Below, one piece after another: positions 135 to 25,051 of a DNA stretch of 64,000 nt. Below the pieces are notes generated by a model. The model had not been told where the DNA came from. It searched no databases and worked only from the letters and a program-made list of their open reading frames with translations. How positions within the stretch are numbered: the first letter of the stretch is position 1; each line of letters opens with the position of its first letter. Made by a program: the position numbers and the translations under genes. The stretch spans positions 165,585 to 229,584 of the forward strand of contig CAYMRP010000001.1 of the NCBI GenBank assembly GCA_964392925.1, read 5' to 3'. The DNA comes from an uncultured Gammaproteobacteria bacterium (GTDB taxonomy: Bacteria > Patescibacteriota > Microgenomatia > Daviesbacterales > UBA10151).

Positions 135-206
135 GCGGGAGTAGTATAGTGGTAGTATGCTTCCTTCCCAAGGAAGAGGCCGCGGGTTCGAATCCCGTCT
201 CCCGCT
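135..206 (+). tRNA. tRNA-Gly (anticodon CCC)
   Basis: Cloverleaf read directly: acceptor gcgggag/ctcccgc, anticodon stem cttcc/ggaag with loop ttCCCaa, T-loop ttcgaat; resembles E. coli tRNA-Gly(CCC). Confidence 0.8.
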
Positions 207-11027: not shown

Positions 11028-11285
11028 ATGTTAGAGAAATTTAGAGGCTCAGTTGTTCGGGTTGTAAATAATGCACTTGAAAGAATGGTAAATAGTGTTC
11101 CTGCAGGTCATTCACAACAAGAAGTTGATGATTTTACGAGGGGTATAATCTCGCTCCCAGAAGCATATAAACGGGTCACAGTTTTAGAGCAAAGATTAAG
11201 TCGTGAGCCTGGAAGCCTGAGAGCAAGGTTTGACACAGCCGTGAAACGTGCTGCAGAAGAGATGGTTAGGCCCTCCCGTTTTTAA
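11028..11285 (+). CDS. hypothetical protein (orphan)
   Basis: 85-aa ORF upstream of gatC, no recognisable domain. Confidence 0.3.
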   Translation: MLEKFRGSVVRVVNNALERMVNSVPAGHSQQEVDDFTRGIISLPEAYKRVTVLEQRLSREPGSLRARFDTAVKRAAEEMVRPSRF

Positions 11286-11328
11286 CGAATCACTTAACAG
11301 AAGCTTCTGTTAAATGTATAATCCACCC

Positions 11329-11625
11329 ATGCGTTTAGATATTGCTCAAGTCCAAAAAGTCGCTAAACTAGCCAGTCTTCCTTTATCCAAAGAAGAGGAA
11401 GAAAAATTCTCTAAAGAGTTAAGCGAGACTTTGGATTATGTTAATCAATTAGAACAAGTTGATACCACCGGCATAGAAACTACCAGTCAAGTCACCGGAC
11501 TAGAGAATATAACCCGCGAAGATGTCATCGGAGAATCTTTATCCCAAGCCGAAGCCCTAAAGAACGCTCCCTCAACTTATAAAGGCTTTATGAAAGTTAA
11601 AGCTGTTTTAGGAGGAGTCGAATAA
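11329..11625 (+). CDS. gatC: Asp/Glu-tRNA amidotransferase subunit C
   Basis: MRLDIAQVQKVAKLASLPLSKEE... GatC-like; immediately precedes gatA (stop/start overlap). Confidence 0.75.
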   Translation: MRLDIAQVQKVAKLASLPLSKEEEEKFSKELSETLDYVNQLEQVDTTGIETTSQVTGLENITREDVIGESLSQAEALKNAPSTYKGFMKVKAVLGGVE

Positions 11626-13034
11626 TGGATTTAACCAATTTAACAATAACTTCGGCTAAAAAAGGTTTAAAAGAAAAAAAGTTTTCTTCGCTTGAATTAA
11701 CAGAAGCTTATTTAAAAAGAATTGCCGAAGTTGATGAAAAAGTTAATGCTTTTGTCACAGTTTCAAAAGACGAAGCTCTTAAAAACGCTAAAGCCGCCGA
11801 TGAGTTAATTTCTAAAGGCGAAGATTTGCCTCTACTCGGAATCCCTTTAAGTATTAAAGATAACTTTAATACCAAAGGCATAACTACTACCGCTTCCAGT
11901 AATGTTCTCAAAAATTTTGTCCCTCCTTACGATGCCACAGTCGTTAAAAAGCTCAAAGAAGCCGGAATGGTTCTTTTAGGAAAAACTAATTTAGATGCTT
12001 TTGCTCATGGCTCCTCAACTGAGACTTCAGATTTTGGTGCCAGCCGCAACCCCTGGAATACTGCTCATTTACCGGGAGGCTCTTCTGGAGGAGCGGCCGC
12101 CAGTATGGCAGCTGGTGAAACCTTAGTTGCTATTGGCTCAGAAACTGCCGGCTCTATCCGCCAGCCTGCAGCCTGGTGTGGAGTTGTCGGCCTTAAACCA
12201 ACATATGGAAGAGTTTCCCGTTACGGAGTTATTGCGATGGCCTCATCTCTTGATTGCCCAGGTCCGATAACCTCAACAGTGGAAGATAGTGCTTTAATTC
12301 TCCAGATTCTGGCTGGCCAAGATCCAAAAGATGCCACCACTTCACCAAAACAAGTACCAAATTATCTGGCAAATATTGATAAAGATCTCTCAGGTCTAAC
12401 TGTTGGAATTTCAGATGAATATTTTATCGAAGGCATCGACCCCGAAGTTGAAAAATCAGTTAAAGATGCAGTAAAAGTTTTTGAACAAATGGGTGCTAAA
12501 GTCAAAACAATTAAATTATTTGATCCCTCGCACTCAGTAGCCGTCTATACAATTCTCCAAAGATCCGAAGTCTCCTCAAACCTGGCCCGTTATGATGGCA
12601 TCCGTTACGGTAATACCCGCGATAACTTTGGCTCAGAAGCCAAACGCAGAATAATGCTTGGAACTTATGCGCTTTCTGCAGGTTATTATGATCAGTTTTA
12701 CAATAAAGCCCAAAGAGTTAGAACTTTGATTATTAATGATTTTAACGAAGCGTTTAAGCAAGTTGATTTAATTCTGGCTCCAACCTCGCCCTCACTAGCT
12801 ATGAAAATCGGTGCTTCTTCCTCAAGTCCTATGTTCGGAGAGCTGGCCGATATGTTAGTCGAACCTTCATCCATCGCCGGCCTTCCTGGTATTAGTGTTC
12901 CCGTTGGTCTCTCAAAATCCGGCCTGCCAATCGGCATGCAAATTATCGGTCCTCAATTCTCAGAAGAACTAATCATCAACGCCGCTCACAAATTCGAAAT
13001 GGAAATTTCATTTAAAGAAAGGCCAAAACTATGA
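11625..13034 (+). CDS. gatA: Asp/Glu-tRNA amidotransferase subunit A (amidase)
   Basis: Amidase signature GGSSGGAAA, length 469 aa, operon context. Confidence 0.9.
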   Translation: MDLTNLTITSAKKGLKEKKFSSLELTEAYLKRIAEVDEKVNAFVTVSKDEALKNAKAADELISKGEDLPLLGIPLSIKDNFNTKGITTTASSNVLKNFVPPYDATVVKKLKEAGMVLLGKTNLDAFAHGSSTETSDFGASRNPWNTAHLPGGSSGGAAASMAAGETLVAIGSETAGSIRQPAAWCGVVGLKPTYGRVSRYGVIAMASSLDCPGPITSTVEDSALILQILAGQDPKDATTSPKQVPNYLANIDKDLSGLTVGISDEYFIEGIDPEVEKSVKDAVKVFEQMGAKVKTIKLFDPSHSVAVYTILQRSEVSSNLARYDGIRYGNTRDNFGSEAKRRIMLGTYALSAGYYDQFYNKAQRVRTLIINDFNEAFKQVDLILAPTSPSLAMKIGASSSSPMFGELADMLVEPSSIAGLPGISVPVGLSKSGLPIGMQIIGPQFSEELIINAAHKFEMEISFKERPKL

Positions 13035-13579
13035 GCGAACGCAGTGGTTGGTTAAAGCGTATTCACACATTAATCAACAGAAAACCTGAAGCTCCTATGA
13101 GCCTAGAGGATCGTATTGGTGGAAGTTTTTTTGGCTGGGGTCAAATTGCTCAATTTGAGATGATAACTGGAGCACAATGGATCGATCTGGTGGGTCCTAA
13201 ATTTAATAGGGATATTGATCTGTCTGGAACCTTAGATCCTGGCGTTCAAAAGCGGATTGGTCTGGTCCTTGTGTCGAATGCTCTAGATCACATAAACGGC
13301 AAACCCAGCATTGCTGAGCCACAAGTATTAGATGATGGAAGAGTTGTTGCCTATCACAGATATGTACTAAGAGGCGGCCGATTCACCGAGGGTTATTATG
13401 CAATCGACCCTAAAAGCCCTGAAACCGAAGACAATTTAGGTGAGATAGGCTCAGCGAAAAAATTTACTGAGCATCTATTCCATGCTGATGAGACATCAGT
13501 GGGTGCGGGTCGAATAATTAGTAATATGCTGGATGTAATGGTAAACGTCTATAAACAAGGAACACCTGATGAAAAATAA
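13031..13579 (+). CDS. hypothetical protein embedded between gatA and gatB (translationally coupled at both ends)
   Basis: ATGA start/stop overlap with gatA at 13031-13034; its stop overlaps gatB start (13569-13579); no recognisable domain; G+C visibly higher than gatA/gatB. Confidence 0.55.
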   Translation: MSERSGWLKRIHTLINRKPEAPMSLEDRIGGSFFGWGQIAQFEMITGAQWIDLVGPKFNRDIDLSGTLDPGVQKRIGLVLVSNALDHINGKPSIAEPQVLDDGRVVAYHRYVLRGGRFTEGYYAIDPKSPETEDNLGEIGSAKKFTEHLFHADETSVGAGRIISNMLDVMVNVYKQGTPDEK

Positions 13580-14894
13580 ATACACTCCTGTCATCGGACT
13601 AGAAGTCCATGTTGAACTTAAAACAAATTCAAAAATGTTCTGCTCATGCAATGCCGATTATTTTGGCAAAGAGCCAAACACTCATACCTGTCCAGTTTGT
13701 CTAGGTCTTCCTGGAGCTTTGCCGGTTCCTAACAAAAAAGCCATTGAATGGTGCGTGCTTATCGGGATGGCCTTAAACTGCACTATTCCTAAAAAAAGTA
13801 AATTCGATCGGAAAAATTATTTTTATCCTGATTTACCAAAAGGTTATCAGATCTCCCAATACGACCAGCCATTCTGTGAAAAAGGCTGGATTGAGCTCTC
13901 AACTGGTAAAAAAATCGGTATTACCCGCGTTCATATGGAAGAAGACACTGCCAAATTAACTCACGCCGAAGTCGAGGGTGAAAATGTTTCATTGGTCGAT
14001 TTTAATCGCGGCGGAGTTCCTTTAGTAGAAATAGTCACAGATCCGGATTTTGAAACCGCCGAAGAAGTCATCGAGTACTTAAAAAAGCTCCAGCAAATTG
14101 TTAGATACTTAAATGTTTCAAACGCCGATATGGAAAAAGGCGATATGCGGCTTGAACCAAATATTTCTTTAAGAAAAGAAGGCCAAACTGATCTGCCTAA
14201 TTATAAAGTCGAAGTAAAGAATATTAACTCCTTCAGATTCGTCGGCAAAGCAATAGAGTTTGAAATTAAACGCCAATCAGAAATCTTAGATAAAGGTGAA
14301 ACCCCAAAACAGGAAACCCGCGGCTTTAATGAGCCGGGCAATAACACCGTTTCCCAAAGAAGCAAAGAAGAAGCTCAGGATTATAGATACTTCCCCGATC
14401 CTGATATTCCGCCAATAGTTTGGGACGACGCTGAGCTTGAGATATTAAAAAAAGTTCTCCCTGAACTTCCAGATACTAAAGTTGCCCGCTACGTTAAAGA
14501 TTATGAAATCTCAAAACAAATTGCCCAAACTTTGGTCGCAGACCAACTAGTTGCCGAACTTTTCGACGGAGCTGCAAAGCTTGGTAAAGAGGAGTCTGTT
14601 GAAGTCAGAGATATAGCAAACTACATAGCCAATCAAAAACCTGATCCTCTCAAAATTACTCCGGATCAAATAATTGAAGCAATCAAAGATAAAAAGTCAG
14701 GCAAAATTGAAGACGAATCTGAACTAACGAAATATGCCGAAGAAGTTATAAAAGAGAATGAAACCTCAGTTGCCGCTTTCAAATCCGGCAAAGAGAATGC
14801 CCTGCAAGCGTTAATCGGCGGCATGATGCGCAAAACCCAAGGCAAAGCCGATGCCGGTAAATCTCTGGAAGTCCTTAAAAAACTCCTTAGCTAA
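13569..14894 (+). CDS. gatB: Asp/Glu-tRNA amidotransferase subunit B
   Basis: N-terminal IGLEVHVEL...MFCSC motif, length 441 aa. Confidence 0.9.
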   Translation: MKNKYTPVIGLEVHVELKTNSKMFCSCNADYFGKEPNTHTCPVCLGLPGALPVPNKKAIEWCVLIGMALNCTIPKKSKFDRKNYFYPDLPKGYQISQYDQPFCEKGWIELSTGKKIGITRVHMEEDTAKLTHAEVEGENVSLVDFNRGGVPLVEIVTDPDFETAEEVIEYLKKLQQIVRYLNVSNADMEKGDMRLEPNISLRKEGQTDLPNYKVEVKNINSFRFVGKAIEFEIKRQSEILDKGETPKQETRGFNEPGNNTVSQRSKEEAQDYRYFPDPDIPPIVWDDAELEILKKVLPELPDTKVARYVKDYEISKQIAQTLVADQLVAELFDGAAKLGKEESVEVRDIANYIANQKPDPLKITPDQIIEAIKDKKSGKIEDESELTKYAEEVIKENETSVAAFKSGKENALQALIGGMMRKTQGKADAGKSLEVLKKLLS

Positions 14895-24293: not shown

Positions 24294-24365
24294 TGATCCG
24301 ACTGGGATTCGAACCCAGGACCAAAAGCTTAAAAGGCTTCTGCTCTACCGCTGAGCTATCGGACC
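24294..24365 (-). tRNA. tRNA-Lys (anticodon UUU)
   Basis: Reverse complement folds as ggtccga/tcggatc acceptor, anticodon stem gaagc/gcttt with loop cuUUUaa, T-loop ttcgaat. Confidence 0.8.
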
Positions 24366-24978: not shown

Positions 24979-25051
24979 GCCGCGTTCGTCTAGTGGTTAG
25001 GACGCTGGGTTTTCATCCCAGTAATCACGGGTTCGACTCCCGTACGCGGTA
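24979..25051 (+). tRNA. tRNA-Glu (anticodon UUC)
   Basis: gccgcgt acceptor, 3-bp D-stem GTC/GAC as in Glu tRNAs, anticodon stem ctggg/cccag with loop uuUUCau, T-loop ttcgact; G1-U72 wobble. Confidence 0.75.

Follow-up and report, generated by a model that had tools for sequence, protein, structure and literature searches.

The 64,000-nucleotide stretch of contig CAYMRP010000001.1 analysed here (the window) carries, between the amidotransferase genes gatA and gatB, an open reading frame (ORF) of 182 amino acids (aa), hereafter ORF182 (Table 1). With somewhat better than even confidence, ORF182 can be regarded as a real, selected, fast-evolving and dispensable passenger gene that sits in the hypervariable slot between gatA and gatB and whose role is not tied to tRNA-dependent amidation. 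The ORF listing and the Pfam and NCBIfam matches of the neighbouring genes confirm the ORF at this place, as reported in an earlier note on this DNA. That note had offered two explanations, an accessory amidation factor specific to the lineage, or a selfish insertion hidden in an essential operon, and neither fits well the evidence presented below.

The coding nature of ORF182 is best seen in comparison with P0001, a 90%-identical copy found in the related loci L001 and L002 in the same orf85-gatC-gatA-ORF-gatB context. The two genes differ by 53 substitutions and no insertion or deletion, the substitutions being distributed 9/9/35 over the three codon positions. The ratio of non-synonymous to synonymous substitution rates (dN/dS) against the L001 copy is 0.166 (bootstrap 95% interval 0.08-0.30; Fisher p = 1e-9, synonymous versus non-synonymous changes), and that of gatA in the same comparison is 0.048; the dS values are 0.32 for ORF182 and 0.29 for gatA. 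All other reading frames across ORF182 are full of stop codons. Because so many substitutions accumulated without any insertion or deletion, with such a split between codon positions and a dN/dS of 0.17, ORF182 is, judged from its pattern of change, a real protein-coding gene under purifying selection. The earlier note had also considered a degraded pseudogene absent from all relatives; the gene is instead intact, selected and shared with some of them.

A more distant homologue, P0002 (186 aa), is 42% identical to ORF182 (E = 7e-31 in a HMMER scan of 1.84 billion representatives). It lies on contig L084, directly 3' of the gene for a GatA with 89.7% identity to that of the window, with an ATGA overlap, and it apparently overlaps the next start by 11 nucleotides (nt) as in the window, the contig ending at this point. 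Between the window and L084, the synonymous sites of gatA are saturated (dS ~2), and dN reaches 0.60 for ORF182 versus 0.084 for gatA; the protein-level rate of ORF182 is ~4-7 times that of GatA. As the L084 copy lies at the same position and shows this difference in dN, ORF182 is, on these comparisons, a gene kept in place yet fast-evolving. About 70 residues, among them aromatic and glycine-rich motifs, do not differ between the three sequences. The conserved core extends approximately from residue 31 to residue 145, with the motifs GSFFxW, TGxQWID, DLxGT, PxVQK and DGRVVxYxRxVLxGGxFxEGxYxIDPxS.

The encoded protein (~20.2 kDa) has an isoelectric point (pI) of 5.7 (5.4-5.8 over the variants), no cysteine and no hydrophobic segment, and is proposed to be a soluble acidic cytoplasmic protein of ~20 kDa. 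A low-confidence model gives it a predicted helix, beta-hairpin, helix layout. Homologues were searched for in libraries drawn from ~15 billion proteins. In agreement with the absence of any recognisable domain reported earlier, neither the single sequences nor the profile had a match in Pfam, NCBIfam, PHROGs, PADLOC or PDB sequences, and the PADLOC defence models matched neither ORF182 nor P0002 nor the other orphans of the slot described below. A word-indexed search of 5.8 billion clusters (single sequence and profile) returned no homologue beyond P0001 and P0002, and nothing was found in two JGI metagenome scans, in an IMG/VR viral scan or by tblastn against phage genomes and plasmids. Every site of the family for which neighbours can be seen (L001-L003, L084) is directly 3' of gatA. 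ORF182 therefore founds, as far as these collections go, a new orphan family of three known sequence variants.

By its GatB, the window belongs to the Microgenomates group of Patescibacteria, where the nearest species-level relatives, labelled Levyibacteriota, Curtissbacteria and similar, have GatB identities of 57-69%. The order gatC-gatA-gatB-dnaE is kept across 80 species-level loci wherever the contig reaches far enough, and none of the 80 encodes a relative of ORF182. In the insert-free relatives that were read, gatA and gatB overlap as ATGA, the commonest form, or within a few bases (..KPKL and the stop over cTATGAaa, gatB then beginning MKYTPVIG). From this comparison, the ATGA overlap of gatA and gatB is taken as the ancestral junction of the clade, and the ATG of ORF182 is exactly on it. 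As the insert-free relatives have their gatB ATG in that overlap, ORF182 starts on the very codon with which gatB begins in these relatives. The suggestion of a lineage-specific gene inserted in the operon is thus borne out. The contiguity of gatCAB, which the earlier note took as normal, holds as the ancestral state of the clade but is often broken: a gene is found between gatA and gatB in 13 of 76 loci (DUF5680, PF05635, asparaginase, several orphans), and the gatC/gatA junction holds one to three extra genes in 22 of 76, mostly His_Phos_1 phosphatases and ORFs that are NUDIX-like by eye.

Close relatives, retrieved through GatA homologues of 85-95% identity (identities hereafter are those of full-length GatA with the window), reveal how variable this slot is. 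No ORF is found in L085/L086 (95%; 93.6% over the 420 columns shared with L084), which have a 75-nt spacer. Orphans of 178 aa, 129 aa, 122 aa, 130 aa and 115 aa occupy the slot in L087 (88%), L088/L089 (86%), L091 (86%), L092 (86%) and L094 (87%), respectively. PF05635 genes of 127 aa and 134 aa are present in L090 (88%) and L093 (87%), and L095 (85%) has only a 55-nt spacer. By lineage, relatives with GatA identity of at least 85% thus comprise three with the ORF182 family, five with different orphans, two with PF05635, one with an ORF-less remnant and one with an empty slot. Judged from these sequences, at least seven alternative contents are found at one coupled junction. The same insertion therefore does recur among related genomes, the ORF182 family being at the same site in L001-L003 and L084, but the remaining relatives have other contents or none.

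Neither with ORF182 nor among themselves do the slot orphans share significant similarity; the closest two, L091 and L092, reach no better than E = 0.014. The idea that the slot ORFs are one diverged family was prompted by the helix, 'GRV' hairpin, helix layout that L037, L087 and L088 share by eye with ORF182. It was dropped after phmmer and hmmsearch (filters off), blastp, and hhalign set against shuffled controls all failed to rise above chance.

A neighbour-joining tree of GatA unites the window, L001 and L085 with 100% bootstrap support, L084 lying outside this clade; the distribution of the ORF182 family follows this tree. Since L084 and the window/L001 pair both carry the family, the simplest history would be that their common ancestor had it and that the L085 lineage lost or replaced the gene. 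Furthermore, because the slot is empty in this nearest lineage and holds unrelated genes in other close lineages, ORF182 is not needed for GatCAB, which evidently functions without it. The ICMT/gatC and gatB/dnaE junctions of L085-L095 are also variable: short orphan ORFs (52-197 aa) lie there on one strand or the other, whereas the 95-nt gatB-dnaE spacer of the window has none reaching 50 aa. The clade as a whole seems prone to turnover of orphans at gene junctions.

One class of slot content is itself informative. PF05635 genes are found between gatA and gatB in L090, L040 and L093 (Table 1) and also in L031, L047 and L063, that is, in the identical slot occupied by ORF182, which indicates that the slot accepts foreign single-gene inserts. 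In L090 and L040, imperfect inverted repeats of 29 nt and 32 nt, respectively, flank these inserts, and GatA takes a new C-terminus (..ERGGFTRMADGG) from the left arm. The PF05635 proteins of L090 and L040 are 80% identical, compared with 44% for GatC, 45% for GatA and 61% for GatB, which points to horizontal spread of the element to one target site. Unlike these inserts, with their 29-32-nt arms and rewritten GatA C-terminus, ORF182 has no PF05635 match and no inverted repeats, and a beta-hairpin is predicted in its product. The PF05635 '23S rRNA intervening sequence protein' is a four-helix bundle encoded in insertion sequences of rRNA genes, including those of the candidate phyla radiation (PMC11270868). 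An element of this rRNA intervening sequence (IVS) type inside a protein-coding operon may be undescribed.

The spacer of L085, and likewise that of L086, keeps both arms and an altered GatA C-terminus (..ERGELPRIADSR) around only ~21 nt; by a second measure, the arms are 18 nt long and 72% complementary. From these traces, the L085/L086 spacer is identified as an ORF-less remnant of a PF05635 element. A single long stem was considered for this remnant, but the minimum-energy fold left the two arms unpaired (z = -1.6), and a stem of the RNase III type is unproven.

The composition of ORF182 is native, and the impression given by the earlier note of a visibly G+C-richer gene does not hold. Indeed, its G+C content is 42.6%, versus 41.6% for gatA, 40.3% for gatB and 41.9% for dnaE. 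The G+C content at third codon positions (GC3), 0.328, lies between those of gatA (0.311) and gatB (0.357), and the codon-usage score (0.062) is within one standard deviation of the 52 long ORFs of the window (mean 0.100, standard deviation 0.041). A foreign origin is rejected on these three measures.

The arrangement of the two junctions suggests how such a gene could be expressed and tolerated. The ATG of ORF182 overlaps the gatA stop as ATGA, as the earlier note stated. Its statement that the ORF182 stop overlaps the gatB start is only approximately right: the stop does not touch the gatB start codon, which precedes it within an 11-nt gene overlap (Table 1). The GatA C-terminus has the canonical sequence ...SFKERPKL and is unaltered by the insertion. 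GatB begins with MKNKY instead of the MKY of insert-free relatives, the two extra codons overlapping the ORF182 TAA. Both insert ends carry ATGA. The GAAAGG motif in the 3' end of gatA has the position of the gatB ribosome-binding site of relatives, and an AAGGAA motif precedes the gatB start; both are read directly and presumably serve as ribosome-binding sites. No convincing internal promoter or terminator was found in the ORF182 region, promoter-consensus matches not exceeding the shuffled expectation, and RNA structure at the two junctions is not significant (z = -0.9 and -1.8).

By starting on the ancestral gatB ATG, ORF182 would have inherited the gatA-coupled ATGA restart signal together with the ribosome-binding site in the 3' end of gatA; the positions of these signals can be seen and their use seems likely. 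Its own 3' end, with the AAGGAA motif and the 11-nt overlap with a rebuilt gatB start, would let finishing ribosomes restart on gatB, and the essential downstream gene would thereby stay expressed. Wedging between two coupled essential genes would thus provide constitutive expression without a promoter of its own, along with some protection from deletion. Fast divergence and turnover could, more speculatively, reflect a niche- or conflict-related role.

Several points weigh against ORF182 as a dispensable passenger of a hypervariable slot. The AlphaFold2 models have confidence scores (pLDDT) of 34.8 (single sequence) and 38.8 (three-sequence alignment), too low for fold comparison. Support for joining L084 with the window clade is only 47%, and the loss in the L085 lineage is deduced from a neighbour-joining tree of one protein, GatA. 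Translational coupling is inferred from the overlaps, and expression is presumed. The slot orphans could be one family diverged beyond recognition, and the slot would then be less swap-like. Finally, persistence at the same position despite saturated synonymous sites, combined with stoichiometric coupling, would also fit a non-essential modulator of GatCAB.

This last possibility can be extended to a lineage-specific subunit or modulator of GatCAB or of the transamidosome, made in fixed proportion through translational coupling. It would account for a place inside the operon with overlaps on both sides, for the retention of that place in a homologue of only 42% identity and for purifying selection. 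A helper is even conceivable in view of the short GatB of the clade (441 aa in the window), in which the YqeY tail model is matched only in part. However, short GatB proteins are common to relatives without ORF182, the lineage that groups with the window (L085/L086) has an empty slot, seven other close lineages have unrelated genes and one (L095) has none. The protein has no similarity to GatC, GatF, Gta3, the GatB tail/YqeY or tRNA-binding domains (Pfam, NCBIfam, PDB, three-sequence profile), its acidity (pI 5.7) is not suggestive of RNA binding and its rate of evolution is ~7 times that of GatA. The accessory role in amidation put forward in the earlier note is therefore a rather improbable explanation. 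A non-functional ORF kept open only for read-through coupling to gatB deserves still less credit and appears highly improbable. Although ribosome flow to gatB could alone select against stop codons, and although there are no homologues beyond the three variants and no confident structure prediction, stop avoidance alone would not yield the dN/dS of 0.17 or the 9/9/35 split, nor would 70 or more invariant residues (W, G, F, Y motifs) be expected to persist at 42% identity.

Mobility has to be weighed in two forms. ORF182 might be carried by, or left over from, a selfish mobile element targeting the gatA/gatB junction, either PF05635-like or a free-standing homing gene. The same junction has indeed been invaded by a repeat-flanked PF05635 gene that is 80% identical where GatA is 45% identical, the slot content turns over fast in close relatives, and the ATGA at both insert ends could be read in the same way. 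Yet a search of positions 12900-13700 found no inverted or direct repeats at the boundaries beyond this functional ATGA. ORF182 has no nuclease, recombinase, integrase, transposase or PF05635 domain (Pfam, NCBIfam, PHROGs, profile), no second copy or paralogue in the window or in 95 related loci and no match in the phage, plasmid, viral or JGI metagenome collections. Its native G+C content and codon usage, its gatA-like dS and its distribution along the GatA tree rather suggest vertical inheritance. The selfish insertion of the earlier note is thus weakly supported and, on balance, distinctly improbable. Alternatively, the ATGA junction could be a dedicated gene-capture and expression slot, a one-cassette integron-like locus in which promoterless ORFs would be swapped by a site-specific process, maybe linked to the PF05635 element. 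Each captured ORF would be translated automatically by taking over the ancestral gatB start. This proposal is unlikely, though not far-fetched.

The closest documented case to a passenger gene at this junction is the bro-1/bro-2 beta-lactamase gene, which Moraxella catarrhalis and M. bovoculi carry as an insertion at the gatA/gatB junction, the cells remaining viable (PMC8406222, citing Akochy, Lapointe and Roy 2012; PMC4073114). The bro gene encodes a known enzyme, is of evident foreign origin, spreads by transformation and alters the GatA C-terminus by its insertion. Like bro, ORF182 is a single gene unrelated to amidation at the gatA/gatB junction, present or absent among close relatives and leaving gatA and gatB intact. 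Unlike bro, it has a native composition, leaves a canonical GatA C-terminus and overlaps both neighbours; no copies of it were found elsewhere in the collections searched. ORF182 is thus a new example of a bro-type gatA/gatB passenger, encoding a new orphan family. The pfkA gene of Mycobacterium tuberculosis presumably lies between gatA and gatB as well.

Integron cassettes are single, promoterless and mostly orphan ORFs expressed from an upstream signal. By analogy, the slot may be likened to them, with one promoterless orphan ORF per slot, expression signals supplied by the site and different ORFs in different strains. Unlike integron cassettes, the slot holds one gene and no array, and neither integrase nor attI appears in the gene tables of the related loci examined. 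Moreover, ORF182 ends 11 nt within gatB, which leaves no intergenic space for an attC site. ORF182 is not an integron cassette. GatC, GatF and Gta3 are likewise small proteins of amidotransferase clusters, but their Pfam models match gatC and not ORF182, which, unlike them, is dispensable in close relatives.

In a limited literature search, no description of a gatA/gatB slot with multiple contents was found, nor anything on gatCAB in Microgenomates or the candidate phyla radiation. ORF182 should not be annotated as a GatCAB subunit from its position alone, and the present results carry no bearing on the mechanism of tRNA-dependent amidation. Their interest lies above all in the hypervariable slot and the PF05635 element and less in ORF182 itself. 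Indeed, the slot is a compact natural system to examine how the reduced genomes of the candidate phyla radiation gain, express and discard promoterless orphan genes, and it is also suited to studying the spread of rRNA-IVS-type PF05635 elements outside rRNA genes.

Table 1. Features of the gat region of the window, tRNA genes of the window, and inserts or spacers at the gatA/gatB junction of related loci
Feature	Sequence	Position	Strand	Remarks
orf85	window	11028-11285	+	lineage-restricted small ORF just 5' of gatC
Promoter-like TTAACA-17-TATAAT	window	11294-11329, site ending at 11322		11/12 matches; inside annotated gatC start region
gatC	window	11314-11625	+	first gene of amidotransferase block; PF02686 1.2e-20, TIGR00135 84.5 bits
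gatA	window	11625-13034	+	469 aa; TIGR00132 520 bits (cutoff 481)
Shine-Dalgarno-like GAAAGG	window	13017-13022	+	within gatA 3' end, 8 nt 5' of ORF182 ATG
ATGA overlap	window	13031-13034	+	ORF182 ATG 13031-13033, gatA TGA 13032-13034
ORF182	window	13031-13579	+	182 aa, ATG to TAA, between gatA and gatB (ORF listing)
Shine-Dalgarno-like AAGGAA	window	13557-13562	+	within ORF182 3' end, 6 nt 5' of gatB ATG
ORF182/gatB overlap	window	13569-13579	+	11 nt; gatB ATG at 13569, ORF182 TAA 13577-13579
gatB	window	13569-14894	+	441 aa; NF004012 548 bits; PF02934 (GatB_N) and PF02637 (GatB_Yqey)
dnaE	window	begins 14990		downstream of gatB (Pfam/NCBIfam)
tRNA gene	window	135-206		Rfam
tRNA gene	window	24294-24365	-	Rfam
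tRNA gene	window	24979-25051		Rfam
PF05635 gene	L090	4395-4808		between gatA and gatB
PF05635 gene	L040	4773-5189		between gatA and gatB
PF05635 gene	L093	4441-4845		between gatA and gatB
ORF-less spacer	L085	5390-5463		remnant of PF05635 element
DUF5680 gene	L020	5547-5996		149 aa, E = 4e-22; overlaps gatA stop
L-asparaginase gene	L083	5007-5993		328 aa; PF00710 and PF17763

Some other features of the region can be added. Translation of gatC may really begin at ATG 11329; the protein would then have 98 aa, the length of GatC in relatives. The top promoter-like site of the region is the TTAACA-17-TATAAT of Table 1, and gatC translated from ATG 11329 may sit on a leaderless or near-leaderless mRNA. 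Another promoter-like sequence, TTAACA-17-TATATT, ends 6 nt 5' of the orf85 ATG, from which a leaderless transcript could also arise. The orf85 gene is 99% identical in L001 and absent in L085; L091 has an 87-aa ORF in the corresponding position, to which orf85 is weakly similar (27% identity, pairwise E = 2e-5). Over the whole window, Rfam at the gathering threshold detects only the three tRNA genes. GatB is short across the Microgenomates clade, with ~433-445 aa in most of L004-L095 and in the window, and the match of the clade's GatB to the GatB_Yqey tail model is confined to the last half of that model (profile positions 75-148).

The other inserts in the gat operons of Microgenomates are diverse. 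One or two His_Phos_1 proteins (phosphoglycerate-mutase-like phosphatases; Pfam assignment on the L006 copy only) are encoded between gatC and gatA in many Microgenomates. Extra genes at this junction are found in L006, L008, L014, L017, L020, L024, L027, L033, L036, L041, L045, L052, L066, L072, L073 and L075, and some of these inserts include an ORF of ~150 aa that is NUDIX-like as judged by eye only. The recurrence of the phosphatase at the gatC/gatA junction suggests a possible functional link. The gatA/gatB slot contains a DUF5680 protein gene in L020 and, in the Gottesmanbacteria genome L083, an L-asparaginase gene (Table 1). Archaeal GatD is asparaginase-like and, by analogy, the L083 asparaginase could be an alternative amide-donor module.

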